From the NCBI RefSeq assembly GCF_913773995.1, contig NZ_CAJYES010000033.1, positions 17,364-81,363 on the forward strand: a DNA stretch of 64,000 nt, given 5' to 3'. The notes under the pieces were generated by a model. The model was given only the letters and a program-made list of their open reading frames with translations. It did no database searches and was not told where the DNA came from. Of this stretch, positions 3 through 11,631 are shown piece after piece. A program made the translations under genes and the position numbers. The stretch is from an uncultured Pseudacidovorax sp. (GTDB lineage Bacteria > Pseudomonadota > Gammaproteobacteria > Burkholderiales > Burkholderiaceae_C). Positions within the stretch are counted from its first letter, which is position 1. Every line of letters begins with the position of its first letter.

Positions 3-617
3 GTGGTGGCCGAGGTGCCCAGCGTCATCGTGACCGGCCCGGCGCTCAAGGACAAATCGCTCAAGGACCTGCTGGCCATGGCCCGCGCCAAGCCGGACGA
101 AGTGCAGTACGCCTCGTCCGGCGTGGGCACGACGAGCCATGTGGGCGCGGCACTGATCGAGTCGATGACCGGCGTGCGCATGACGCATGTGCCGTACAAG
201 GGCGCCGCCCCCGCACTGCAGGACGTGATGGCCGACCGCGTGCCGCTGTCGGTGGACATCATCACCTCCTCCCTGCCGCTGGTGACCAGCGGCAAGCTCA
301 ATGCCGTGGCCGTGACCGGTGCCAAGCGCGCGCCCAAGCTGCCCAACGTGCCCACGGTGGCCGAGGCCGGCATCCCGGGCTACGAATTCGTTTCCTGGTA
401 CATGCTGCTGGCGCCGGCCAAGACGCCCAGGCCGGTGCTGGAGCAGGTCAATGCCGAGTTGCGCAAGCTGGCCGCCCTGCCCGAGTTCCGCACGCGCATC
501 GAGGACACTGGCGGCCAGGTCGTCACGACCACGCTGCCGCAGGCCAACGACTACCTCAACGCCGAGTTCACGCGCTGGGCCAAAGTCGTCAAAGACCGCA
601 ACATCAAAGCAGACTGA
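3..617 (+). CDS. Bug/TctC-family tripartite tricarboxylate transporter substrate-binding protein (5' end outside the window)
   Basis: Bug motifs YASSGVGTTSH, HVPYKGAAPALQDV and PNVPTVAEAGIPGY; C-terminus WAKVVKDRNIKAD. Its stop overlaps the next ATG. Confidence 0.9.
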   Translation: MVAEVPSVIVTGPALKDKSLKDLLAMARAKPDEVQYASSGVGTTSHVGAALIESMTGVRMTHVPYKGAAPALQDVMADRVPLSVDIITSSLPLVTSGKLNAVAVTGAKRAPKLPNVPTVAEAGIPGYEFVSWYMLLAPAKTPRPVLEQVNAELRKLAALPEFRTRIEDTGGQVVTTTLPQANDYLNAEFTRWAKVVKDRNIKAD

Positions 618-1546
618 TGAACCAGCCTCACCCCGCCCAGCCCCGCGACTTCATCGGCTACGCCAATCGCCCACCCGCCGTGGCCTGGCCGGGCGGGGCG
701 CGGGTGGCGGTCTCCTTCGTGCTGAACTTCGAGGAGGGCGCCGAGTTCTCGGTGGCCGATGGCGATGCACGCAACGAGTCGGTGTACGAGGTGATCGACC
801 CGCGCACCGGCTGGGATCCGTGCATCGACAGCCACTTCGAATACGGCACCCGCGCTGCCTGGTGGCGGATCGCCGAGCTGTTCGAGCGCCATCACGCGCC
901 GATGACGGTGAGCGCCTGCGGGCGCGCGGTGGAGCGCAGCCCCTGGCTGGCGCAGGATGCGGTGGCCCGCGGGCATGAGGTCTCGGCCCATGGCTGGCGC
1001 TGGGAGAGCCATGCCGGCATGGCGCCCGCCCAGGAGGCCGCCGCCATGGACGCCTGCCTGGGCGCCATCGAGGCGGCCTGCGGGCGGCGGCCGGTGGGCT
1101 GGCACACGCGCTCGGCCTGCACGCCGAATACGCGGGCGCTGCTGGCCGAGCGCGGCTTCCTCTACGACAGCGACGCCTATAACGACGATGTGCCCTTCTT
1201 CGTGCCGGTGGCCGGCCGGCCGCACCTGGTGCTGCCCTATGCCTTCGACACCAACGACATGCAGTTCCAGCACACGCAGCGCTTCGCCACCGCCGCGCAG
1301 TTCGCCGAGTACGTCTGCGATGCCTTCGACTGGCTGCACGACGAGGGCGCCACACGGCCACGCATGATGTCGGTGGGACTGCACCTGCGCATGATCGGGC
1401 GGCCAGCACGCATGAAGGCGCTGGCGCTGATCCTCGAACACCTGCAGCGCCGCGGCGGCGCCTGGATCGCCACGCGCGAGCAGATCGCCCGCCACTGGCT
1501 GGCCCACGCTCCCCGCCCCGGCTCGGTGGCCACCGCCGCCGGATGA
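617..1546 (+). CDS. Polysaccharide deacetylase family protein, PuuE allantoinase-like
   Basis: PuuE-like segments RDFIGY, WPGGARVAVSFVLNFEEG, EYGTR, HGWRW, YDSDAYNDDVP, NDMQF and SVGLHLRMIGRP. Confidence 0.85.
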   Translation: MNQPHPAQPRDFIGYANRPPAVAWPGGARVAVSFVLNFEEGAEFSVADGDARNESVYEVIDPRTGWDPCIDSHFEYGTRAAWWRIAELFERHHAPMTVSACGRAVERSPWLAQDAVARGHEVSAHGWRWESHAGMAPAQEAAAMDACLGAIEAACGRRPVGWHTRSACTPNTRALLAERGFLYDSDAYNDDVPFFVPVAGRPHLVLPYAFDTNDMQFQHTQRFATAAQFAEYVCDAFDWLHDEGATRPRMMSVGLHLRMIGRPARMKALALILEHLQRRGGAWIATREQIARHWLAHAPRPGSVATAAG

Positions 1547-1609
1547 CGGCGTCCGCCGACAGGGATCGCGCGGATGGGCGTCCCGAGGGCCTGCGCTAAA
1601 GTCATCCGG

Positions 1610-2320
1610 ATGCATCCGACGGAAGAGGCCATCCACCGCACCCTGGCGCAGACGCTGCTGGCCGGGCGGCTCGCGCCCGGCACCCAGCTGGTGGAAACGC
1701 GCCTGGCGCAGATCTTCGGCGTCTCGCGCGAGCGGGTGCGCAAGGTGCTGCACCGGCTGGGCCACGAGCGGCTGCTGGACCTGATGCCAAACCGCGGCTG
1801 CTTCGTCAGCAACCCCACACTGGCGCAGGCGCGCGAGATCTACGACGCCCGCCGCATCATTGAAGGCGGCATCGTCGGCAGTCTGGCCGGCACGCTGAGC
1901 CCCTCGCAGCTAGAGGCGCTGGCCGAACACGAGCGGCGCGAGCATGCCGCGCTGCATGCGGGCGACCGCGCGGCCTCGATCCGGCTGTCGGGCGAATACC
2001 ACCTGCTGCTGGCCGAGTTCACCGGCAGCCCCTTCGTGGTGCGTCAGTTGCAGGAGCTGGTCAGCCGCACCGCCATGCTGGTGGCCTTCTTCGAGCCGGC
2101 CAGCGCCTCGGGCTGCGGCTGCGAGGAGCACGAGGCCATCGCCCTGGCCCTGCGCCGCGGCGATGCGGCCGGCGCCATGAAGGCCATGCAGGTGCACCTG
2201 TCGCTGATCGAGACGCGGCTCAAGCCCCGCGCCGCGCCCGAAGCCGAAGTGGACGCCGAGCAGGCCATCGCGGAGGCCTGGGCCGACGCCCAGGCCGGCC
2301 TGGCCCAGCCGGCCGCCTGA
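1610..2320 (+). CDS. GntR/FCD-family transcriptional regulator
   Basis: wHTH LAPGTQLVETRLAQIFGVSRERVR followed by an FCD-like domain (SGEYH, EHEAI). ATG 1610 chosen over 1574. Confidence 0.9.
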   Translation: MHPTEEAIHRTLAQTLLAGRLAPGTQLVETRLAQIFGVSRERVRKVLHRLGHERLLDLMPNRGCFVSNPTLAQAREIYDARRIIEGGIVGSLAGTLSPSQLEALAEHERREHAALHAGDRAASIRLSGEYHLLLAEFTGSPFVVRQLQELVSRTAMLVAFFEPASASGCGCEEHEAIALALRRGDAAGAMKAMQVHLSLIETRLKPRAAPEAEVDAEQAIAEAWADAQAGLAQPAA

Positions 2321-2384
2321 CCCCCGCGGGCACGGGCGCTGCTTTCTTCGACCGGCACCGCTGTCACCTTCACCGGGCCCTGCC

Positions 2385-3083
2385 ATGACCCAGACCGCTC
2401 CCGCCCTGCCGCCACGCCCCCGGCTGCTGGTGCTCAATCCCAACCGCACGGCCGCCATGACCGACGCCGTGCTGCACGAGCTGCGCCGGCTGACGGTCGG
2501 CCAGGTGGAGCTGCGCGGCTTCACCTGCGACGACGGGCCGCCGGTGATCGCCACCCGCGAGAGCTTTGCCGCCGGCGCCGCCGCCGCCGCCCGGGCCTGG
2601 CCCGCAGTGGACGACGGCTGGGCCGATGCCGTGCTGCTGTCCTGCTACGGCGACCCGGGGCTGGCGGCGCTGCGGGCCGCCAGCCGCGTGCCGGTGCTGG
2701 GCATGGCCGAGTCCAGCATGCTGCAGGCGCTGGCCCGCGGGCGCCCCTTCCACATCGTCACTGCCGGCAAGGCCTGGGGGCCGATGCTGCATGAGCTGGC
2801 CGCGCGCCACTCCAGCGCCTGGCCGCTGCTGCACGGCATCACCACGCTGGACACCACCGGGCTGGCCGGCAGCCAGAACCCGGCCGCCTTCTCGGCGCTG
2901 GTCCAGCGGGCGCTGGACGATCTGGCCGGCGCGCACCCGGGCGGCATGGCTCCCGACTGCATGCTCGGCGGCGCCGGCTTTGCCGGCATGCGGCCCACCC
3001 TGCGCTACGGCGGGCTACTGGAGGACGGGTTGCAGGCCGCGCTGGCGCAGTGGCGGCCGCTGCCGGTCACTCCGGCTTCCTGA
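2385..3083 (+). CDS. Asp/Glu/hydantoin racemase family protein (allantoin racemase-like)
   Basis: LVLNPN..MT, SCYGDPG and PVLGMAE motifs; the second motif reads LGGAG. Confidence 0.8.
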   Translation: MTQTAPALPPRPRLLVLNPNRTAAMTDAVLHELRRLTVGQVELRGFTCDDGPPVIATRESFAAGAAAAARAWPAVDDGWADAVLLSCYGDPGLAALRAASRVPVLGMAESSMLQALARGRPFHIVTAGKAWGPMLHELAARHSSAWPLLHGITTLDTTGLAGSQNPAAFSALVQRALDDLAGAHPGGMAPDCMLGGAGFAGMRPTLRYGGLLEDGLQAALAQWRPLPVTPAS

Positions 3084-3185
3084 AGCGAAGCTCACCTTCC
3101 GCTACCGGCGGCTTTGCGCCGGTCCGGCAGGCCTCGGCGGCTTGGTGCGCCGGCATACACGGGCACAGCTTGGCCCGTGTCGACC

Positions 3186-3245
3186 GCACACAATTTGCGC
3201 TCGCTCCGAGCGAAACAATGCTCTGGAAGTTGGCGCAGCCGCTGC
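3186..3245 (+). promoter_or_regulatory. Candidate sigma54 (-24/-12) promoter with an upstream NtrC-like half-match
   Basis: TGGCGCAGCCGCTGC at 3231-3245 has GG-N10-GC spacing, about 30 nt before ATG 3276. GCAC-ACAATTT-GCGC at 3186-3200 resembles GCAC-N7-GTGC. Both matches are imperfect. Confidence 0.35.
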
Positions 3246-3275
3246 CCATACTGCGGTCATCTTGTGCAGCGCATC

Positions 3276-4478
3276 ATGACTTCCGCCTTCCTTTTCCCCT
3301 CTTCCGACCTGCGCCCGCAACTGGCCGTGCACCGTCTGGCCATGGCCCATCCCGGCGATCTGTCGGCCCTGGCCGCGCTCTTCGACGCCGGCACCGTGGG
3401 CGCCGACGAGGTGGTGGCGGTCATTGGCAAGACCGAGGGCAATGGCGGCGTGAACGACTTCACCCGTGGCTACTTCACCCAGTCGCTGATGCAGCTGCTG
3501 GCCGAGCGCACCGGGCGGCCGGCCGAGGCGATCTGGCGCGCGCTGCCCTGCGTGCTCTCCGGCGGCACCGAAGGCGTGCTGAGCCCGCATTACGTGGTCT
3601 TCTCGCGCCGTCTGGTGCCGGCGCATGCGGCGCGCGGCGCCAGCACCGACGCCCCGGTCGACGCCCCCGCCAACGCCCGGACGATCAATGCGGCCTCCGC
3701 CGCCCTTGCCATCGGCACCGCCTTCAGCCCCCCGATGGCCGCTCAGGACATCGGCCGCTGGACCCATGTGCGCACGGTCGCCCAGGCCGTGCGCGCCGCC
3801 ATGGACCAGGCCGGCATCGACCGGCCCGAGGACGTGGCCTTCGTCCAGCTCAAGTGCCCCTGCGTCACCTCGGCCCGGGCCCAGGCGGCCGCGGCGGCCG
3901 GCCACACCGTGCTTACGGCCGATCCGGGTCGCTCCATGGCCTTCGCCCGGGCGGCGGGCGCTTTCGGCGCCGCCATCGCGCTGGGCGAACTGCCCGACGA
4001 CCCGGTGCTGGAAGGTGCGCTGCTGCAGGACTTCGACCGCTTCTCGGCCCGCGCCAGCGTTTCCTCCGGCGTGGAGGTGGAGGCCAACGAGGTGATCGTG
4101 CTCGGCCACAGCACCCGCTGGCAGGGCCCGCTGCGCATGGGCTGCGCGCCGATGCGCGACGCGCTGGACATCGCCGCCGTCGGCGAGGCGCTGCGCCCGC
4201 TGGGTCTCTCCGCCACGCCGCAGTTGCCGGCCGAGCAGGCCATGCGCGTGGCGGCCGTCTTCGTCAAGTGCGAACCCGATCGCCGCGGCCAGGTGCGCGG
4301 CGTCCGCCACACCATGCTGGACGACACCGACATCAATGCCCAGCGCCACATCCGCGGCGCCGTGGGCGGGCTGGTGGCCGGCGTGCTGGGCGATGGGCGC
4401 CTCTTCGTCTCCGGCGGCGCGGAACACCAGGGTCCGGACGGCGGCGGCCTGGTGGCCGTGATCGCGGCGGTCGCCTGA
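3276..4478 (+). CDS. atzD: Ring-opening amidohydrolase, cyanuric acid hydrolase/barbiturase (AtzD/TrzD) family
   Basis: Family motifs GKTEGNG.VNDFTRG, LSGGTEGVLSPH, VQLKCP, SMAFAR, SSGVE, FVKCE, RHTMLDDTDI..QRHIR and VSGGAEHQGPDGGG. The symbol marks the family; the substrate is not proven. Confidence 0.93.
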   Translation: MTSAFLFPSSDLRPQLAVHRLAMAHPGDLSALAALFDAGTVGADEVVAVIGKTEGNGGVNDFTRGYFTQSLMQLLAERTGRPAEAIWRALPCVLSGGTEGVLSPHYVVFSRRLVPAHAARGASTDAPVDAPANARTINAASAALAIGTAFSPPMAAQDIGRWTHVRTVAQAVRAAMDQAGIDRPEDVAFVQLKCPCVTSARAQAAAAAGHTVLTADPGRSMAFARAAGAFGAAIALGELPDDPVLEGALLQDFDRFSARASVSSGVEVEANEVIVLGHSTRWQGPLRMGCAPMRDALDIAAVGEALRPLGLSATPQLPAEQAMRVAAVFVKCEPDRRGQVRGVRHTMLDDTDINAQRHIRGAVGGLVAGVLGDGRLFVSGGAEHQGPDGGGLVAVIAAVA

Positions 4479-4483
4479 CACGC

Positions 4484-5884
4484 ATGACCGCCATGCACGC
4501 CTGGCAGATGAGCGCCGAGGCCCTGTCGCAGGCCTATGCGCGGCGCACGCTGTCGCCGGTGGAGGCACTGCTGTCCGTGCTGAGCCGGGCGGAAGCGGTG
4601 CACCCCGTCATCAACGCCCTGGTGGTGCGCGATGACGCCGCAGCACTGGCGGCGGCCCAGGCCAGCGAGGCCCGCTGGCGACGGGGCGCGCCGCTGTCGC
4701 CGCTCGATGGCGTGCCGCTCACCGTCAAGGACAACCTCCCCGCGACCGGCCTGCCCTGCCGCTGGGGCAGCCGGCTCTTCGCCGACCACTGGCCGGCGCG
4801 CGACGAAAGCCCCGTGGCGCGGCTGCGCGCGGGCGGCATGGTGATTCTGGGCAAGACCAACGTGCCCGAGTTCACCCTGCAGGGCTACACCGACAACCCG
4901 CTCTTCGGCCCCACCGGCAACCCGTGGGCCCCGGCGCTCACGCCCGGCGGAAGCAGCGGCGGCGCCGTGGCGGCCGTGGCGGCAGGCATCGGCCCGCTGG
5001 CCCTGGGCACCGATGGCGGCGGCTCGGTCCGCCGGCCCTGCGGCTTCACCGGGCTGTATGGCCTCAAGCCGGGTCGCGGCATGGTGCCGCGTGTCGATGG
5101 CCTGCCCGTGCTGCTGCCGGGGCTGGAAGAAGCGGGCCCCATCGCCCGCGGCATGACCGACCTGCTGCTGGCGCTGCGCCTGCTCGCGCCCACGCTGACG
5201 CCGCTGTGTGAAGCCCCCGGTCCGCTGCGCATTGCGTACTGGCGCACCATCGGCGACAGCCCGGTCGATGCGGCCATCCTGGCGCGCAGCGATGCCGCGG
5301 CCGAGCGGCTGCAGGCCATGGGACACACCGTGGTCGTGCAGCCCTCGCTTCCCGAAGTCGAGGCCTTCAACTGCCAGGCCTGGCCGGTCATCGCCAGCAC
5401 CGGCATGGCCGCCGCGCTGCAGGAGCGCATCGACGGCCGCGAGGACGAGCTCACACCCGCCATGGCCGCGCTGTTTGCGCAGGGCCGCAGCCACAGCGCG
5501 GTCGAGCTGTTCCAGGCCCAGGCGCTGCAACGCGCGCTGGCGCGGGCCTTGCAGGGCCTGTTCGCTCAGCACGACCTGCTGCTCACCCCGGCCAGCGCGG
5601 CCTTGCCCTGGCCCGCCGACCAATCCCATCCCACCACCATCGCCGGCCAGCCGGTGGACGGCCGCGGCCATGCCGTGTTCACCGCCTTCGTCAACGGCGC
5701 CGGACTGCCCGCGCTGGCGCTGCCGGCCGGCCCGACGGAAGAAGGACTGCCGGTCGGCCTGCAACTGGTGGCCCCGCGCGGTGGCGACGCGCTGCTGTGC
5801 GCCGTCGGCGCGATGTGGGAACGCGATGCCGCGCCAGCCTGGTGCTGGCCGCCTGCCCTCGACAAGGAAGAGATGCCCTCATGA
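4484..5884 (+). CDS. Amidase-signature family amidase
   Basis: PLDGVPLTVKDN (Lys), GKTNVPEF, PGGSSGG and GTDGGGSVRRP (Ser-cisSer-Lys triad). Real start is ATG 4484, not 3050. Confidence 0.92.
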   Translation: MTAMHAWQMSAEALSQAYARRTLSPVEALLSVLSRAEAVHPVINALVVRDDAAALAAAQASEARWRRGAPLSPLDGVPLTVKDNLPATGLPCRWGSRLFADHWPARDESPVARLRAGGMVILGKTNVPEFTLQGYTDNPLFGPTGNPWAPALTPGGSSGGAVAAVAAGIGPLALGTDGGGSVRRPCGFTGLYGLKPGRGMVPRVDGLPVLLPGLEEAGPIARGMTDLLLALRLLAPTLTPLCEAPGPLRIAYWRTIGDSPVDAAILARSDAAAERLQAMGHTVVVQPSLPEVEAFNCQAWPVIASTGMAAALQERIDGREDELTPAMAALFAQGRSHSAVELFQAQALQRALARALQGLFAQHDLLLTPASAALPWPADQSHPTTIAGQPVDGRGHAVFTAFVNGAGLPALALPAGPTEEGLPVGLQLVAPRGGDALLCAVGAMWERDAAPAWCWPPALDKEEMPS

Positions 5885-7254
5885 AGATCGTGATCGTGGG
5901 CGCCGGCGTGGCCGGTGCCATCCTCGCCCGCCGACTGGCCCGCCTGCCCGGCGTGGAACTGCACTGCCTGGAGCGCGTCGGGCCCGACGACCATGCCGAG
6001 GCCGGCACCGGACTGAACGTGGGCCCGAACGCCATCAAGGCGCTGCGCCGCCTCGATGCCGCGCTCGCGGCCGAGGTGGAGGCCGCCAGCCTGCCCTGGA
6101 CCCGCTGGGACATCGCCCTGACCGACGGCACGCCGCTGATGGCGCTGCCCCTGTCGCAGGTGGCCGACAACCCGGGCATCCGCATCCGCTGGTCGGAGCT
6201 GTACCGCGTGCTGCGCCAGGGCGCGGGCGCAGCCTTCCGCTATGGCTGCACGCTCGAATCGGTGGGCGCCAGCGAGACGGCGCCGGGCAAGACCCGCGTG
6301 CGCTTCACGCAGCACGGCGCCACGCACGAGATCGACGGCATCGACCTGCTGGTGGGCACCGACGGCCGCTACTCCCGCGTGCGCGAGACCTTCTCCGGTG
6401 CGCCCGAGCCGCGACACATCGGCGTCGCCATCCTGCGCGTGCTGGTGCCCGACACCAGCGCCGGCCTGGTGGACGACTACGGCCAGTGGTTCAGCGGCTG
6501 CCACCGGCTGCTGGCCTTCCGCGTGCCGCCGGACCATGTCTACATCGCCGCCACCTACCCGGTGGCACCCGGCGCCCCGGTACAGGACGCGTGGAAGACC
6601 GAGGCCGTGATGCGAGCCACCTACCAGCCTGCCCAGGGCGAGGCCAGCCCCGCCGTGCGCTGGCTGCTGGACGCCATGTGCGCCCAGTTGCACGACGCGC
6701 ACTGGGCCCGCATGCAGGAGGCCGACGTGCGCTTCGCCGAGCCCGAGGTGGACGTGCTGTACCTGGGCGACAGTGCCCACGGCATGGCGCCCACGCTGGG
6801 CCAGGGCGCGACGCAGGCCATGGAAGACGCCTGCGCCGCCGCGCTGATCGTGGAGGACGCCTGGGCCCGCGGCCAGCGCACGCCGCGCGTCTGGCTCGAC
6901 CGCATCGCCGAGGCCCGCACCGAGCGCCTGCGCTTCGTGATGGACCTGTCGGTGCGCGCCACCGACACCATGCTCGACGGCGCCGACCCGGTGGCCGGCA
7001 CACGCTGGAAGACCCAGGCACCCTTCCAGGCCGAGCTGGCGGCGCTGTTCCGCGACGTGGCGCTGGGCGTGCCGGACGAGGCCCAATGCCAGTCAGCGAA
7101 TCACAGTCCGTTCGGGCTGAGCCTGTCGAAGCCGGGCGCAAGCCCTTCGACCCTTCGACCCTTCGACAAGCTCAGGACAGGCCAAGCTCAGGACAGGCCA
7201 AGCTCAGGGCGAACGGGTGATCCGACTGGCAGGGGGCCAAGGCCCACGGCCTGA
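5881..7254 (+). CDS. Group A FAD-dependent monooxygenase (salicylate/urate hydroxylase-like) with a repeat-derived C-terminal tail
   Basis: MKIVIVGAGVAG Rossmann motif, DG motif (GTDGRYSRVR) and GD motif (LGDSAHGMAPTLGQGATQAMED). The ATG overlaps the amidase stop. Confidence 0.88.
   Translation: MKIVIVGAGVAGAILARRLARLPGVELHCLERVGPDDHAEAGTGLNVGPNAIKALRRLDAALAAEVEAASLPWTRWDIALTDGTPLMALPLSQVADNPGIRIRWSELYRVLRQGAGAAFRYGCTLESVGASETAPGKTRVRFTQHGATHEIDGIDLLVGTDGRYSRVRETFSGAPEPRHIGVAILRVLVPDTSAGLVDDYGQWFSGCHRLLAFRVPPDHVYIAATYPVAPGAPVQDAWKTEAVMRATYQPAQGEASPAVRWLLDAMCAQLHDAHWARMQEADVRFAEPEVDVLYLGDSAHGMAPTLGQGATQAMEDACAAALIVEDAWARGQRTPRVWLDRIAEARTERLRFVMDLSVRATDTMLDGADPVAGTRWKTQAPFQAELAALFRDVALGVPDEAQCQSANHSPFGLSLSKPGASPSTLRPFDKLRTGQAQDRPSSGRTGDPTGRGPRPTA
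7108..7216. repeat. REP-like palindrome, expanded copy
   Basis: Left arm CCGTTCGGGCTGAGCCTGTCGAAGC. The right arm contains CCCTTCGA x3 and CAAGCTCAGGACAGGC x2 before CAAGCTCAGGGCGAACGG. Confidence 0.9.
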
Positions 7255-7286
7255 TTCCTGCTCGGCCTTCTGCAACGCACCACCCC

Positions 7287-7823
7287 ATGAACAACGCTCT
7301 CACCCACGGCCTCTTCCACCTGGCCATCAAGACCGCCGACCTGGCTGCCACGAGCGCCTTCTGGATCGGCGTGATCGGTCTGCGTGAAGTACCCCGGCCC
7401 GACTTCGGCTACCCCGGCGCCTGGCTCGCCTGCGGCCAGCCGGGCGGGCAGGCCATCATCCACGTCTATGCCGGCGGCCCGGCCCTGGGCGGCCAGGCCA
7501 GCGTGCCGCAGGGCACGGCCGCCATCGACCATGTGTCGCTGGCCTGCAGCGGCTACCACGCCTACATCGCGCGCTTCCGCGCCGCAGGGCTCGCCTGGCG
7601 CGAGTTCTTGGTGCCCGGCACCACGCTGTGGCAGCTCTTCGTCTACGACCCCAGCGGCGTGCAGCTGGAGTTGACCTTCGAGGGCGCCGTCGAAACCGGC
7701 GCGCCGCCCGACATGTCGCCCGGCCGCGTCTACCGCGCCGGCGAATCCTTCTTCGACACCGCCACCTATCCCACCCTTTCCCTGAACACACCCTCCGGAG
7801 AACCCGCCCATGCTTCGCACTGA
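7287..7823 (+). CDS. VOC (glyoxalase/dioxygenase superfamily) protein
   Basis: FHLAIKTADL, PGAWL, IIHV, IDHVSL and QLFVYDPSGVQLEL, with the His/His/His/Glu pattern of VOC proteins. Confidence 0.85.
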   Translation: MNNALTHGLFHLAIKTADLAATSAFWIGVIGLREVPRPDFGYPGAWLACGQPGGQAIIHVYAGGPALGGQASVPQGTAAIDHVSLACSGYHAYIARFRAAGLAWREFLVPGTTLWQLFVYDPSGVQLELTFEGAVETGAPPDMSPGRVYRAGESFFDTATYPTLSLNTPSGEPAHASH

Positions 7824-8796
7824 CTTCCTGCGGCTTGCCGCACGCGCCACCGCCGCATTGGCACTGGCCCTGCCCTTCGCGGGCGTCGCCCATGCGGCCG
7901 ACAAGATCAAGTTCGGCGTCTTCCCGTCCAGCGCCGCGCTGCCCTTCTACATCGCCCAGAACCGCGGCTGGTTCAAGGAGGCCGGTCTGGAGGTGGAAGA
8001 GGTGCCGATGACCAGCCATCCGCTCACGGTGCAGGCCATCGTCTCGGGCAACATCGACGGCGCCGCCAACCTGGTGACGCTGGAAGGCGCCAACATGGAG
8101 TCGCGCCGGCCCGGCACGCTCAAGTACATCTCGCTCAATGGCCAGAACAGCCAGCATGTGATCGAGCAGTTCGTGGTCAAGGCCTCCAGCCCGGCCAAGT
8201 CGCTCAAGGACTTCAAGAACGGGTTCAAGCTCTTCTCGGCGCCCGGCCCGGCCAACATCGGCGCGGCGCGCGCGGTGCTCAAGAAGGTGGGTCTGGTCGA
8301 AGGCAAGGACTTCACCATCCAGGAGCAGCAGATCGGCGTGCACGTCGGCGCGCTGCAGTCGGGCAACTTCGACGGCGGCTACACGCTGGAGCCCTCGGCC
8401 ACCATCATGGTGGCGCAGGGCGTGGGCCGGCGCGTGGAGACGGGCGTGATCGCCACCTACCTGCTGGGCCGCAAGGAGGCCTCGGCCTTCGCTGCCGGGG
8501 CCGTGCTGTCCGACAAGTTCATCGCCGAGCGGCCCGAGGTCGCCAAGCGCTTCGCCGCCGTGTGGGCGCGCGGCGTGAAGGCCGCGCAGACCGACACCAG
8601 CACCCGCGGCTACCTGATCCAGGGCATGAAGGTGCCGCCCGAGCTGGCCGCCACCGTGCCGCTGCCGCGCATCGTGATGACGGGCGACCTGTCGCCGGCC
8701 GACGTGGCCGACTTCCAGAAATTCCTGGACATCGGCACCGAGCTGGGCGTGATCAAGGACAGGATCGACGGCAAGGCCGTGGTCAAGGCGCTGTGA
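7810..8796 (+). CDS. NitT/TauT-family ABC transporter substrate-binding protein
   Basis: Signal peptide ending AHA-A; ALPFYIAQNRGWFKEAGLEVE (SsuA/NMT1-like); followed by ATPase and permease genes. Confidence 0.88.
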   Translation: MLRTDFLRLAARATAALALALPFAGVAHAADKIKFGVFPSSAALPFYIAQNRGWFKEAGLEVEEVPMTSHPLTVQAIVSGNIDGAANLVTLEGANMESRRPGTLKYISLNGQNSQHVIEQFVVKASSPAKSLKDFKNGFKLFSAPGPANIGAARAVLKKVGLVEGKDFTIQEQQIGVHVGALQSGNFDGGYTLEPSATIMVAQGVGRRVETGVIATYLLGRKEASAFAAGAVLSDKFIAERPEVAKRFAAVWARGVKAAQTDTSTRGYLIQGMKVPPELAATVPLPRIVMTGDLSPADVADFQKFLDIGTELGVIKDRIDGKAVVKAL

Positions 8797-9641
8797 TGCG
8801 GGCCATGGACGTCTCCCCGCCGCGCACTGCGCCCCCCACCGACGCCGACGCGACCAGCGCCGCCGCGGGCCACCGCTGGTTCGCGCCCGGCACGCACATC
8901 ACCATCCGCGGGCTGACCAAGCGCTTCGGCGATGCGGCGGTGTACGAGAACTTCGACCTCGACATCCCGCACGGCAGGATCACCTCGGTCTTCGGCCCCA
9001 ACGGCTGCGGCAAGAGCACGCTGATCAACATGATCGCGGGCATCCTGCCGCACGACGGCGGCCAGATCCTGTTCGAGGGCAAGACGGCGCGCGAGACGCG
9101 CATCGGCTACGTCTTCCAGAACTACCGCGAGGCGGTGTTCCCGTGGATGCGGGCCATCGACAACATCCGCTACCCGCTGCAGTACCTGGGCCTGTCGAAG
9201 GCCGAGCGCGAGGCGCGCATGGACCGGCTGATGGCCGAGTTCGACGTCAAGCTGGACCTGTCGCGCTACCCCTATCAGATGTCCGGCGGCCAGCAGCAGC
9301 TGGTGTCGATCATGCGGGCGCTGGTGGTGGAGCCGGAGGTGCTCTTCCTCGATGAGCCCTTCTCCGCGCTGGACTACGAGATGGTCATGTTTTTGCGCGA
9401 GCGGCTGCAGAGGGTGCTGGTGGGGCGCAAGGTGACGACGCTGCTCGTCTCCCACGACCTGGACGAGGCCGTGCTGCTGGCCGACCATGTGCTGCTGCTG
9501 ACCAAGCGGCCCACGCAGGTGGCCGACAACCTGCCCTTCGACGTGCCGCGCCCGCGCACGGCGGCCACCACCGTCTCGCCGGAGTTCATCGACGTGAAGA
9601 CGCGGGCGCTGGAGATCTTCCAACGCGAGGTGCGCAAATGA
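8796..9641 (+). CDS. NitT/TauT ABC transporter ATP-binding protein
   Basis: Walker [10 protein letters not shown], signature MSGGQQQ, Walker [13 protein letters not shown]-loop VSHD. ATG 8796 overlaps the upstream TGA. Confidence 0.93.
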
Positions 9642-10399
9642 AGACGCCGATCGCTGCACGCCTGCGGCCGCTGTGGGGCATGGCCCTGATCATCGCGCTG
9701 TGGGCCTTCGCCCATGCCACCAAGGCGGTGGACCCGGTGCTGCTGCCCTCGCCCGGCGAGGCGCTGCAGGCCTTCTGGAAGGGGCTCTCGGGCGGCACGC
9801 TGTGGGGCGACTTCGAGAAGACCATCGTGCGCACACTGGTCTCCTTCGTCATCGCGCTGGCGGTGGCCGTGCCGCTGGGCGTGATCCTGGGGGCCAACGA
9901 GAAGATCTACGAAGGCATCGAGTTCGCCATCGACTTCTTCCGCTCGACGCCGGCCTCGGCCATGTTCCCGCTCTTCCTGGTGCTGTTCGGCGTGGGCGAG
10001 AAGACCAAGATCGCCGTGGCCGCCTTCGGCGCGGCGCTGGCCATCCTGTTCAACGTGGCCTACGGCGTGATGAGCGCGCGCAAGCAGCGGCAGCTGGCCG
10101 CCCGCGTGATGGGCGCGCCGCGCTGGCGGGTGCTGACCGACGTGACGCTGCTCGAATCCATGCCGCAGGTCTTCGTGGGCATGCGCTCGGGTGTGTCCAT
10201 CGCGCTGGTGATCGTGATCGTGGCCGAGATGTTCATCGGCTCCACCGACGGCCTGGGCCAGCGCATCATGAATGCCCAGACCATCTTCGACATGCCCGAC
10301 ATGTACGCTTCGATCTTCGCGGCGGGCCTGCTGGGCTACGTGATGAACCTCATCTTCCTGGTGGCGGAGCGGCGCTTCGTGCACTGGGGCGGAAAGTAA
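9638..10399 (+). CDS. NitT/TauT ABC transporter permease
   Basis: LLPSP motif, multiple transmembrane segments, EAA-like loop [18 protein letters not shown], and VAEMF. Confidence 0.92.
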
Positions 10400-10410
10400 G
10401 AGACGACCCC

Positions 10411-10800
10411 ATGACTGTGTCCATGAACGAGATCAACCTGCCGGACGTGCTGGCCGAGGTGAACGCGGTGTTCGACGAGTACGAGCGCGCCCTGACGACC
10501 AACGACGTGCCGGTGCTCGATCAGCTGTTCTGGGACTCGGAACACACGCTGCGCTACGGCGCCACCGAGAACCTCTATGGCTACGCCGCGATCCAGGCCT
10601 TCCGCCAGGGCCGCCCGGCCAACAACCTGGAGCGCGAGATCACCGCCCGCTCGGTCACCACCTTCGGCCGCGATTTCGCCGTCGCCAACGTGGAGTTCCG
10701 CCGCACCGGCAGCACCCGCATCGGCCGCCAGAGCCAGACCTGGGTGCGCCTGCCCGAGGGCTGGAAGGTGGTGGCGGCCCATGTGAGCCTGATGGGCTGA
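10411..10800 (+). CDS. hpxZ: HpxZ/AtzH-family protein (DUF3225, NTF2-like)
   Basis: [43 protein letters not shown] and [10 protein letters not shown] are characteristic of the family. Confidence 0.92.
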
Positions 10801-10825
10801 TGGGCTGATGGGCTGATGGGCTGAT
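10789..10825. repeat. Tandem 8-mer (CTGATGGG) x4 plus a partial copy, spanning the hpxZ stop codon
   Basis: Read directly from the sequence: ctgatggg ctgatggg ctgatggg ctgatggg ctgat. Confidence 0.95.
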
Positions 10826-10835
10826 CGCCCCATCC

Positions 10836-10895
10836 CCGTTCGGGCTGAGCTTGTCGAAGCCTTGCGCAGCGCTTCGACAAGCTCAGCGCGAACGG
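10836..10895. repeat. REP-like palindrome between convergent genes (possible terminator-like hairpin)
   Basis: CCGTTCGGGCTGAGCTTGTCGAAGC ... GCTTCGACAAGCTCAGCGCGAACGG, near-perfect 25-bp inverted arms. Confidence 0.92.
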
Positions 10896-10914: not shown

Positions 10915-11631
10915 CTACTTTCCGCCCCCAGCCGCCATCGCCTTCTGCATCTCCGCCGCCATGCGACGCATGTCCTCGGGCGACATGGACTGCTGCATCT
11001 GGCCCATCATGCGCTGGATCTCGGCCTGCGTCGGCGCCCGGCCCGCGGCCGCGGCGGCGCCCATCGGCGCCGTCATGCGCTGCATGTCGACGACGTTCAT
11101 CTTCATGCCGCCGGGCAGCACCATGTCGCCGGGCCGCATGCCGGCGGGGCAGGCGCCCTTCCATTGCGCCTCCATCGTCATGTCGCTCTCGTCCTGTTTG
11201 GCTCGGGGCGGGGCATAGGTGGTGTGGGAGCTCACGCGGTAGCTGCTGTTCATGTCGCCGGTGACGACGGTCAGCCGCGTCATCGTGGTGTCGGGCAGCT
11301 TGCAGACCTCCTTGTGCGTCAGCACGCGGCCCACCTCGCTGCGCATGTCCTCCTGGCAGTTCGTGGGCTTGCGCGCCTCGGCCTGACGACTCGCACCCTG
11401 CTCCTGCAGCAGTCGGTCGGTGGCCGCATCGGCGCACTGCTGCAGGGTCATCGGCTGGCCCTTGGCGGAGGTTTCCACGCGCATCTCCCACAAGCCGTCC
11501 TTGCGGCGCGGGAAAGCTGGGCCGGCGAACACGGCGGCGGTCTCGGCGAGCAGCGCGAGGGCGATGGTGATGCGGGCGGTGCGGAAGGGACGGAAGGGAC
11601 GGAAGGGACGGAAGGGACGGAATGCGGACAT
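10915..11631 (-). CDS. DUF3617-family secreted protein
   Basis: Signal peptide, then RKDGLWEM..T, QQC..C, WKGAC Cys pattern, and a Met/Gln-rich helical tail. Confidence 0.8.
   Translation of the reverse strand: MSAFRPFRPFRPFRPFRTARITIALALLAETAAVFAGPAFPRRKDGLWEMRVETSAKGQPMTLQQCADAATDRLLQEQGASRQAEARKPTNCQEDMRSEVGRVLTHKEVCKLPDTTMTRLTVVTGDMNSSYRVSSHTTYAPPRAKQDESDMTMEAQWKGACPAGMRPGDMVLPGGMKMNVVDMQRMTAPMGAAAAAGRAPTQAEIQRMMGQMQQSMSPEDMRRMAAEMQKAMAAGGGK
11582..11622. repeat. Tandem 9-mer (CGGAAGGGA) x4 plus a partial copy, encoding (FRP)n in the DUF3617 signal n-region
   Basis: Read directly from the sequence; protein starts MSAFRPFRPFRPFRPFRTAR. Confidence 0.95.

Follow-up and report, generated by a model that had tools for sequence, protein, structure and literature searches.

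The 64,000-nucleotide stretch of DNA analysed here (the window; positions 17364-81363 of contig C33) belongs to a Pseudacidovorax genome of 5.37 Mb and about 70% G+C and opens with a run of co-oriented catabolic genes that probably encodes an undescribed nitrogen route from a cyclic relative of cyanuric or barbituric acid. The run is made up of Unit A (3-3083) and Unit B (3186-10895). Unit B carries atzD_X, the gene for a ring-opening amidohydrolase of the AtzD/barbiturase family, together with genes for an amidase, a group A FAD monooxygenase (FMO), a metalloprotein of the VOC superfamily, an ABC importer and an AtzH/HpxZ homologue. In our estimation the chances are balanced that Unit B is a conserved nitrogen-scavenging operon that imports a six-membered cyclic ureide resembling cyanurate or barbiturate and opens it in an oxygen-dependent way. 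The nearest relative across the cluster is Pseudacidovorax sp. 1753, with 93-99% protein identity.

Genes were identified with Pfam and NCBIfam profiles at curated cut-offs, and their starts and lengths match independent gene calls on metagenome contigs. A preliminary description of this DNA had named eleven genes as one co-oriented cluster. All eleven were found, in one orientation and mostly translationally coupled, whereas the single cluster resolves into the two units. Unit B, on the plus strand throughout, contains atzD_X (3276-4478) and the genes for an amidase-signature amidase (4484-5884; PF01425, 305 bits), the FMO (5881-7254; PF01494, FAD_binding_3), the VOC protein (7287-7823), a binding protein of the NMT1/THI5 type (NitT/TauT family; 7810-8796; PF09084 and PF13379), an ABC ATPase (8796-9641), an ABC permease (9638-10399) and AtzH (10411-10800; NF033625, 205 bits against a cut-off of 135; PF11533, 204 bits). 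The ATPase and the permease were assigned by orthology to Comamonadaceae proteins with which they share 75-91% identity; the Variovorax paradoxus orthologues carry PF00005 and PF00528, respectively. From atzD_X to atzH every junction is an overlap or a gap of at most 11 bp, except for the 32 bp that follow the FMO gene. Overlaps of 1 to 14 bp join the amidase and FMO genes, the VOC and binding protein genes, the binding protein and ATPase genes and the ATPase and permease genes, as well as the TctC and PuuE-like genes of Unit A; the gaps are 5 bp between atzD_X and the amidase gene and 11 bp between the permease gene and atzH. The wider gaps of the run measure 27, 64 and 192 bp, the last of them directly ahead of atzD_X. 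A hairpin like a repetitive extragenic palindrome (REP) at 10836-10895, a perfect inverted repeat (CCGTTCGGGCTGAGCTTGTCGAAGC...GCTTCGACAAGCTCAGCGCGAACGG), ends the operon.

The case for a functional unit is carried by co-occurrence. Eighty loci encoding AtzD relatives, many of them from metagenome-assembled genomes (MAGs), were collected and each was scored with all window proteins; the genes of relatives were predicted with our own codon model, validated on the window. Fifteen of the 80 atzD genes, that of the window included, belong to a deep branch of the family described below, here called clade X. The FMO gene lies within 10 kb of 11 of these 15 genes and of none of the 65 others (Fisher 1e-10), and the VOC gene within the same distance of 8 of the 15 and again of none of the 65. 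Of 401 evenly sampled Burkholderiales genomes, 26 encode a protein of the AtzD family. FMO orthologues (at least 42% identity, E <1e-60) were found in 12 genomes, all 12 of them AtzD-positive, and VOC orthologues (at least 55% identity) in 15, with 14 AtzD-positive. The genome-level association of FMO and VOC with the AtzD family reaches Fisher p values of about 1e-16 to 1e-18, which overstate the significance because the lineages are not independent and many loci are moreover MAGs. The association of the Unit B genes nevertheless goes far beyond chance. A chance juxtaposition of unrelated genes would agree with the 192-bp gap and the separate regulators, which make at least two transcription units out of the run; for Unit B it is refuted by the translational coupling of neighbours, by the genome-level association and by a core order kept from Comamonadaceae to Rhodospirillales, Hyphomicrobiales and Rhodobacterales, and for the run as a whole we regard it as highly improbable.

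The pairing of atzD with the FMO gene was observed in three gene orders, among them atzD-amidase-FMO in Comamonadaceae. Bradyrhizobium, Devosia and Celeribacter show the order atzD-FMO, and in a Burkholderiales family (f61) the FMO gene lies 24-50 bp from a clade-X-type atzD in seven genomes, upstream of it in six and downstream in G357. The order AtzD-amidase-FMO-VOC-binding protein-ATPase-permease is the same in Pseudorhodoferax, Polaromonas, Variovorax and Hydrogenophaga, and two Ferrovibrio genomes have a rearranged gene set. Partial sets are AtzD-FMO-VOC in Bradyrhizobium and AtzD-FMO-ABC-second AtzD-amidase in Devosia and Celeribacter, while the complete V. paradoxus genome reads LysR-AtzD-FMO-VOC-binding protein-ATPase-permease-AtzH, without the amidase. 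The co-occurrence for which the preliminary description had proposed a search is accordingly seen across Beta- and Alphaproteobacteria for the AtzD-type gene, the FMO, the VOC protein and the ABC importer. For HpxZ, which had been counted among the partners, it was confined to Pseudacidovorax, Pseudorhodoferax, Hydrogenophaga and V. paradoxus, with none in the other clade-X lineages.

Other partners appear at a few clade-X loci. An Opitutales MAG (L030:8189-13936) encodes AtzD_X, the amidase and an NCS2 xanthine-permease-like transporter in this order, with a Rieske-domain protein immediately before AtzD_X. This protein of 583 amino acids, with an N-terminal Rieske domain and about 480 residues without a Pfam or PDB match, is a redox protein of a different class at the position of the FMO. 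In a Variovorax MAG, AtzD_X and the amidase are paired with a TRAP transporter. In Bradyrhizobium, Celeribacter and family f61 the module has genes for molybdenum hydroxylases of the xanthine dehydrogenase (XDH) family next to it. Separately, three Rokubacteria loci (L039, L050 and L074) encode an XDH-family large subunit, 52% identical to that of the Bradyrhizobium module, 3-5 kb upstream of AtzD homologues that form a clade of their own, sister to the barbiturases in the tree.

AtzD_X clears the family cut-offs with a wide margin (PF09663, 435 bits against 25; TIGR02714, 366 bits against 153) and also passes the NCBIfam equivalog for cyanuric acid hydrolase (CAH, EC 3.5.2.15), NF052395, with 459 bits against 360. 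It is 41% identical to AtzD of pADP-1 and 43-45% identical to Rhizobium AtzD. A maximum-likelihood tree of 88 family members was calculated with a quick search, with pADP-1 AtzD and TrzD left out. Here the 15 members of clade X were separated from the rest by a stem of 1.17 substitutions per site with an SH-aLRT support of 100, and all 11 FMO-adjacent atzD genes fell within this clade. In the opposite half are placed Moorella 6BUM and 5T13 as CAHs of known structure, those of Bradyrhizobium, a second AtzD of the window genome (contig C201), the second copies of Devosia and Celeribacter, and the barbiturases. Clade X thus stands apart both from the structurally characterised CAHs and from the barbiturases. 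The window protein matches the Moorella and 5T13 CAHs with about 300 bits, pADP-1 AtzD with 258 and TrzD with 177. Since AtzD and TrzD are the weaker matches, CAH activity spans sequence distances at least as large as this one, and given such a spread a separate clade is by itself no evidence for a new substrate. Clade X is large, with more than 120 clusters (90% identity) at 63% identity or more to the window protein, many of them from Variovorax, Pigmentiphaga and Hydrogenophaga. A search of plasmids gave no clade-X atzD, every match being below 60% identity and plasmid-borne atzD reaching at most 46%, and no match for the FMO.

The active site was compared motif by motif. All three Ser, three Lys and three Arg, forming three pseudo-symmetric Ser-Lys dyads with one Arg each, and the C-terminal SGGAEHQGP loop, with the EHQGP of the metal site, are retained in the 15 aligned rows of clade X; in AtzD_X they are found in the motifs GKTEG, DFTRG and SGGTEG of domain A, QLKCP, FARAAG and SSGVE of domain B, and VKCEP, QRHIRG and SGGAEHQGP of domain C. 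The catalytic and substrate-binding roles of these residues have been described for CAHs (PMC6557486, PMC4051656). Barbiturases (EC 3.5.2.1) replace the Arg of domain B by Gln or Asn (PMC4051656), whereas AtzD_X has it (FARAAG), along with SGGTEG and SGGAEHQG; the actinobacterial rows, which match PDB 5HWE with 581 bits, read SNG, WSGGTDG and SVSAAHQG. AtzD_X also scores lower against the barbiturase 5HWE than against the CAH structures. Clade X differs consistently from the CAHs at second-shell positions close to the motifs, with Met replaced by Leu before SGGTEG, KCPLL by KxPCV, YSRGAS by xARAAG, TSAG by SSG, AKAEAS by VKCEPDRRG and TRHARA by QRHIRG, and several of these states are common to barbiturases.

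The FMO belongs to group A (PHBH type), with PF01494 over its cut-off and the GxGxxG, DG and GD fingerprints visible in the translation as VGAGVAG, LVGTDGRYS and LGDSAHGMAPTLGQGA, and its closest solved relative is NicC (57 bits). The conserved C-terminus (LFRDVALG) ends near position 7057, and the reading frame runs on for about 65 codons through an expanded REP-like palindrome (7108-7216), recognised by comparison with the simple copy at 10836-10895. Orthologous FMOs stop at about 403 amino acids; in L020, the nearest relative, the tail is a different one and the count is 418.

For the VOC protein the Pfam match is marginal (PF00903, 20.9 against a cut-off of 20.6), and a sequence search of solved structures gave no match. 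Its AlphaFold2 model (pLDDT 83.6) was matched by Foldseek to glyoxalase I and FosA folds (both with probability 1.0) and to the methylmalonyl-CoA epimerase fold, which are generic hits only. Judging from the model, with paired beta-alpha-beta-beta-beta modules and a metal site, the protein can be assigned to the VOC superfamily; H11, H59, H82 and E128 are invariant. A genome of the same family as that of the window (G280, L169:4453-11160) encodes a VOC protein of 79% and an AtzH of 76% identity at the end of an operon, flanked by two chemoreceptor genes. The sole AtzD of this genome is canonical and is encoded together with BiuH on another contig.

The amidase is distinct from AtzE. It scored 185 and 183 bits with the AtzE models NF006631 and TIGR02715, whose cut-offs are 461 and 426, and is 30% identical to pADP-1 AtzE, whereas the amidase C177_16425 of the same genome reaches 62%. 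The 5-bp gap to atzD_X and the 4-bp overlap with the FMO gene leave no room for an adjacent small open reading frame (ORF) of the AtzG/GatC type. The statement of the preliminary description that AtzG, AtzF and BiuH are missing from the window holds and extends to AtzE, the only match on C33 being the amidase itself. None of atzE, atzG, atzF and biuH lies in the 17 kb upstream on C33 either, which had been named as a place where canonical genes might be found; this region holds a LysR gene, a DNA ligase gene, a metallo-hydrolase-like gene and unrelated genes. Amidase orthologues are present in 9 of the 11 FMO-linked clade-X loci, and the amidase appears to be dispensable, as the V. paradoxus operon is without it. 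The binding protein gave only weak, SsuA-like matches among solved structures, and its nearest paralogue is the binding protein of an AtzF-ABC-AtzG-AtzE cluster on contig C177. The ATPase and the permease are 75-95% and 78-99% identical, respectively, to those of the related loci L020-L025. The AtzH of the window, a homologue of the decarboxylating amidohydrolases AtzH/HpxZ and 63% identical to pADP-1 AtzH (PDB 6BJT), is the only one in the genome.

The genome does encode canonical cyanurate enzymes, on other contigs. The genome-wide search for atzF, biuH and atzG that had been suggested located all of them, with atzE, on one 14-kb stretch of C177 (11284-25232). It contains AtzF (51% identical to pADP-1 AtzF), a NitT/TauT ABC system, a 67-amino-acid AtzG-like ORF, AtzE (62% to pADP-1), a BMP-type ABC system, a 354-amino-acid protein, BiuH (over its cut-off) and a second BiuH-like gene; no other AtzG-like ORF was found, and AtzG-AtzE have no AtzH beside them. 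An arrangement of this type has been described for Comamonadaceae by Esquirol et al. (PMC6219798). The second BiuH-like gene may be TrtA-like. The AtzD on C201 is closer to pADP-1 AtzD than AtzD_X is (58% against 41%). It lies in a cluster (C201:39383-53199) with an isochorismatase-family protein (RutB/BiuH-like), two NMT1 binding proteins, a short-chain dehydrogenase/reductase, a dihydropyrimidinase/allantoinase-like hydrolase, an ABC system, a TRZ/ATZ-type amidohydrolase, a DUF3830 protein and an AtzR-like LysR (52%). Clusters of the C201 type recur in at least eight other Burkholderiales genomes and look uncharacterised.

These genes bring in an explanation in which Unit B is a variant of an ordinary cyanurate operon. 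AtzD_X would be a true CAH under AtzR-like control, the ABC system would import cyanurate, the amidase (or AtzEG/BiuH encoded elsewhere) and AtzH would process 1-carboxybiuret or biuret, and the FMO and VOC proteins would be accessory, for instance in clearing barbiturate, which inhibits CAHs potently, or in the use of a co-substrate. The observations that favour it all weigh against a distinct ureide route. AtzD_X retains all nine CAH-defining residues including the Arg of domain B, with the SGGAEHQG loop, and passes the CAH equivalog (PMC4051656). The operon includes AtzH, 63% identical to pADP-1 AtzH and the genome's only copy while the C177 AtzG-AtzE pair is without one, and an AtzR-like regulator; the LysR upstream of Unit B shares 41% identity with AtzR and has homologues encoded at canonical CAH loci. 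Among the 14 other clade-X genomes, BiuH (over its cut-off) is encoded in 8 and AtzF in 10, and in three BiuH/AtzF carriers, Pseudorhodoferax, a Variovorax MAG and Hydrogenophaga, the clade-X protein is the sole AtzD, which would fit a cyanurate-to-biuret conversion. In G280, VOC is present without FMO or clade X, and the VOC-AtzH pair adjoins an AtzR-like LysR gene and a BMP-type (atzT-like) ABC system, so that the role of VOC may be general to cyanurate and ureide metabolism. To these points the non-independence of the lineages behind the Fisher values has to be added. With canonical genes elsewhere in this genome and in clade-X genomes, the ring opener could have an ordinary cyanurate role.

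We nevertheless find this explanation, the main and a serious alternative, rather unlikely. Cyanurate breakdown needs no oxygenase, whereas clade X is tightly linked to an FMO or a Rieske-domain protein, a linkage never seen for canonical CAHs. A canonical-type AtzD is also present in 7 of the 14 other clade-X genomes, in Devosia and Celeribacter with both copies in one operon, and its retention beside AtzD_X argues against simple redundancy. The module also occurs where BiuH and AtzF are both lacking, in Devosia, Celeribacter, a Ferrovibrio and a Variovorax MAG. Finally, the long stem of the clade and its specific substitutions beside the active-site motifs weigh against an ordinary CAH. The suggestion of an uncharacterised N-heterocycle route, made in the preliminary description, therefore stands in so far as the operon is non-canonical and FMO, VOC and importer co-occur; it needs amending in that the cluster is composite, the amidase dispensable and HpxZ patchy. 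On the strength of this co-occurrence and of the non-canonical make-up, an N-heterocycle that is imported, oxygenated, ring-opened and deamidated is the best reading of Unit B.

From the gene content we infer the following sequence of steps for the nitrogen-scavenging operon. The NitT/TauT ABC system would import the compound, and an O2-dependent hydroxylation by the group A FMO would be obligatorily coupled to the hydrolytic opening of the ring by AtzD_X. The amidase may then deamidate the ureido fragment and AtzH decarboxylate it, with the products entering the allophanate, biuret and urea enzymes encoded on C177. VOC might act on a metal-chelating intermediate by isomerisation, decarboxylation or cleavage. 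The need for an oxygenase implies that the entering substrate is probably not cyanuric acid itself and must bear an oxidisable ring carbon. Two types of compound are candidates. The first is a pyrimidinetrione with a C5 (barbiturate, 5-alkylbarbiturate or dialurate type); hydroxylation of its nucleophilic C5 would precede ring opening by AtzD_X, and this would fit the chemistry of group A FMOs, the XDH and uracil phosphoribosyltransferase neighbours and the non-redundancy with canonical AtzD. The second is a C6-substituted 1,3,5-triazine-2,4-dione of the oxonate or 5-azauracil type, from which oxidation would yield cyanurate for AtzD_X, then a true CAH, to open; a CAH site that is intact, an AtzR-like regulator, AtzH and the co-occurrence with BiuH and AtzF agree with this form. 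Group A FMOs normally attack electron-rich carbons, so that the triazine variant would require unusual chemistry, a further point on the debit side of an oxygen-dependent route.

A bolder form of the ureide reading, which we put forward only tentatively, is that clade X represents a third specificity in the AtzD/barbiturase fold, within a new aerobic pathway for the mineralisation of pyrimidines or aza-pyrimidines. AtzD_X would open a ring that the oxygenase has just made hydrolysable, an example being a barbiturate or 5-alkylbarbiturate that originates from uracil or thymine and has been hydroxylated at C5. The FMO (or the Rieske oxygenase), VOC and AtzH would take part, and the PuuE-like protein and the racemase-fold protein with a single cysteine would form a branch that deals with the five-membered ring product. 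Such a pathway, if it exists, would be widespread in the Proteobacteria of soil and water.

Unit B appears to be controlled by an AtzR-like LysR regulator. The gene of this regulator (C33:15770-16768) lies about 0.6-1.6 kb before the start of the window; its product is 41% identical to pADP-1 AtzR, compared with 52% for the LysR on C201. Most FMO-bearing clade-X loci have a 301-amino-acid LysR gene immediately upstream, and the V. paradoxus product carries PF00126 and PF03466. A 36-bp palindromic block (GCACACAATTTGCGCTCGCTCCGAGCGAAACAATGC, 3186-3221, plus strand) precedes the clade-X atzD of the window and is kept ahead of that gene in five relatives (L020-L023 and L025), with matching changes in its half-sites, and in the relatives it is located directly between LysR and atzD. 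We therefore regard it as an operator-like element and putative site for the control of atzD_X. A sigma-54 promoter was considered for the conserved block and rejected, since the TTGC element is not kept in L025 where the palindrome is. A scan for promoters and terminators gave nothing useful in DNA of about 70% G+C.

Unit A, also on the plus strand, occupies the space between the LysR gene and this palindrome. It consists of the 3' part of a gene for a TctC/Bug-type periplasmic binding protein (3-617; PF03401, 144 bits), which begins upstream of the window at C33:16856 and whose stop overlaps the start of the next gene, and of the genes for a PuuE-like hydrolase of the polysaccharide deacetylase fold (617-1546), a GntR/FCD regulator (1574-2320, with a possible start at 1610; PF00392 and PF07729) and a protein of the Asp/Glu/hydantoin-racemase fold (2385-3083; PF01177, 103 bits). 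The block is restricted to Pseudacidovorax and missing from all other clade-X loci. As the conserved palindrome sits between LysR and atzD in the relatives, Unit A has come to separate a regulator gene from the operator. Four other Burkholderiales genomes have an orthologous TctC-PuuE-like-GntR trio on its own (61-74% identity), and the GntR protein, conserved with TctC and the PuuE-like gene, is 63-71% identical in L130-L133.

The PuuE-like protein reached 316 bits with the model of PuuE allantoinase (TIGR03212), below the cut-off of 424.6, and by this measure would be a cyclic-amide hydrolase paralogous rather than orthologous to allantoinase PuuE. The same genome holds a PuuE-type copy, 44% identical to the window gene, next to a 5-hydroxyisourate hydrolase (HIUase) gene on C190 and a 54% paralogue on C181. 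In the racemase-like protein (motifs SCYGDPG and LGGAG) the first of the two Cys, which we take to be the catalytic ones of this fold, is kept and the second is replaced by Gly, while the paralogue on C190 has both (ACFGDPG and LGCAG). Lacking the second Cys, the window protein is unlikely to be a classical two-base racemase. Unit A can be seen as a later insertion with its own GntR and TctC, its probable substrate being a related carboxylate of the hydantoin type with a five-membered ring; opening of this ring would fall to the PuuE-like enzyme, and the one-cysteine protein may be an isomerase or decarboxylase instead of a true racemase.

Homologues from both units meet in a large island of purine/pyrimidine type in the Burkholderiales genus g21 (L177:2600-18600). 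Two HIUase genes, genes for uracil phosphoribosyltransferase and NicO, a 72-amino-acid AtzG-like ORF and an AtzE-like amidase gene are followed by VOC (57%), FMO (47%), a TRZ/ATZ-type aminohydrolase, a PuuE-like protein (53%), a racemase-like protein (35%) and TctCBA. The island is divergent from genes for an M20 hydrolase, PuuE and an AMDase-family protein (PF17645). Members of g21 without the FMO are also without the aminohydrolase and the second HIUase. This arrangement indicates that VOC and FMO homologues work with a ring hydrolase of either the Toblerone fold, to which the AtzD/barbiturase family belongs, or the PuuE fold.

The g21 island, with a second HIUase paralogue only where the FMO is present, its TRZ/ATZ-type deaminase, its PuuE-like and racemase-like proteins and the divergent M20 and PuuE genes, also raises the question of a side route of purine oxidation. 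The FMO, in the manner of HpxO, would take urate or a substituted form of urate or xanthine as its substrate; the ring opener, VOC, the PuuE-like and the racemase-like proteins would replace HIU hydrolase, OHCU decarboxylase, allantoinase and allantoin racemase; and the amidase and HpxZ would finish products of the oxalurate type. The NCS2 xanthine-permease-like transporter in L030, the XDH-family genes adjacent in several lineages and an HpxZ over its equivalog cut-off agree with such a route. However, the FMO fails the HpxO equivalog NF033623 by a wide margin (77 bits against a cut-off of 500), HIUase, PuuE and the M20 enzyme are already encoded on C190, and no other clade-X locus has the PuuE-like and racemase-like genes. 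According to the AtzD structures, the active site closes around one planar, six-membered trione (PMC6557486, PMC4051656), and as all the AtzD contact residues are kept in AtzD_X, a bicyclic substrate is improbable. Overall, we consider a purine route unlikely.

Some further features were seen at the end of the operon and beyond it. An 8-bp unit, GATGGGCT, is present in four tandem copies at 10791-10822. As the first copy holds the last two codons and the stop of the hpxZ gene, a change in copy number leaves the HpxZ protein unaltered. The ORF that follows on the minus strand (10915-11631) encodes a product starting with MSAFRPFRPFRPFRPFRTA, with a tandem PFR repeat at its N-terminus, and the V. 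paradoxus gene at the equivalent position carries DUF3617 (PF12276).

To our knowledge, CAH and barbiturase activities are the only ones known in the AtzD/barbiturase family. The natural role of CAH is a long-standing puzzle, as cyanuric acid is not a known natural product (PMC4051656). The consistent wiring of clade X to an oxygenase and a VOC protein suggests either that cyanurate has a natural precursor or that this fold accepts a third substrate. Clade X includes the genetically tractable V. paradoxus, which makes the question directly testable. The answer would bear on annotation, where these genes are now named "cyanuric acid amidohydrolase" and "glyoxalase", and may help to explain the fate of by-products of urea fertiliser and of oxidised nucleobases in soil. 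No description of a cluster combining AtzD with a monooxygenase was found in the open-access literature, subscription journals lying outside that coverage.

Among known systems, Unit B is most readily compared with atzR/atzDGEHF of pADP-1 (Pseudomonas sp. ADP, NC_004956.1). Both have a LysR regulator and an AtzD-family enzyme (41% identity each), a downstream amidase-signature enzyme, AtzH (63%) and an associated ABC importer, and both would serve nitrogen scavenging, a role that is presumptive for the window. In contrast to pADP-1, the ring opener of the window belongs to a different deep clade, its amidase is not an AtzE (30%) and comes without AtzG, and the operon is without AtzF. It has the FMO and VOC embedded in it, its importer is of the NitT/TauT type where that of pADP-1 is of the BMP type, and the closer homologues of AtzD, AtzE and AtzF in the window genome are found on other contigs. 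The atzD-biuH route of the Rhizobium leguminosarum 3841 type has its counterpart in the BiuH and allophanate hydrolase of this and most clade-X genomes, with which biuret could be consumed. The BiuH gene of the window genome is, however, not adjacent to atzD_X and lies on C177 beside those of AtzF, AtzG and AtzE, and the Rhizobium atzD has neither FMO nor VOC with it.

The oxidative pyrimidine route of Rhodococcus erythropolis reportedly consists of uracil/thymine dehydrogenase, barbiturase and ureidomalonase (Soong et al. 2001/2002). Both systems pair a ring opener of the Toblerone fold with an amidase-signature enzyme, and XDH-family genes near the module in several lineages and the uracil phosphoribosyltransferase of the g21 cluster add to the resemblance. 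AtzD_X differs in being without the barbiturase signature, its loop reading SGGAEHQG and not SVSAAHQG. We know of neither a flavin monooxygenase nor a VOC protein in the oxidative pyrimidine pathway.

The purine hpx cluster of Klebsiella includes HpxO, an HpxB/PuuE-type allantoinase, the racemase HpxA and HpxWXYZ, and the cluster for the C-8 oxidation of caffeine includes Cdh, TmuM, TmuH and TmuD. The run of the window follows a similar logic, with a group A FMO, hydrolysis of a ring, a PuuE-type hydrolase together with a racemase-fold protein, and an HpxZ-type finishing enzyme. Among its proteins only HpxZ reaches the cut-off for orthologues of the hpx enzymes (77 of 500 bits for HpxO, 316 of 424.6 for PuuE). 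The racemase-like protein of the window is short of one catalytic Cys, and at the place of HIU hydrolase stands an enzyme of the Toblerone fold.

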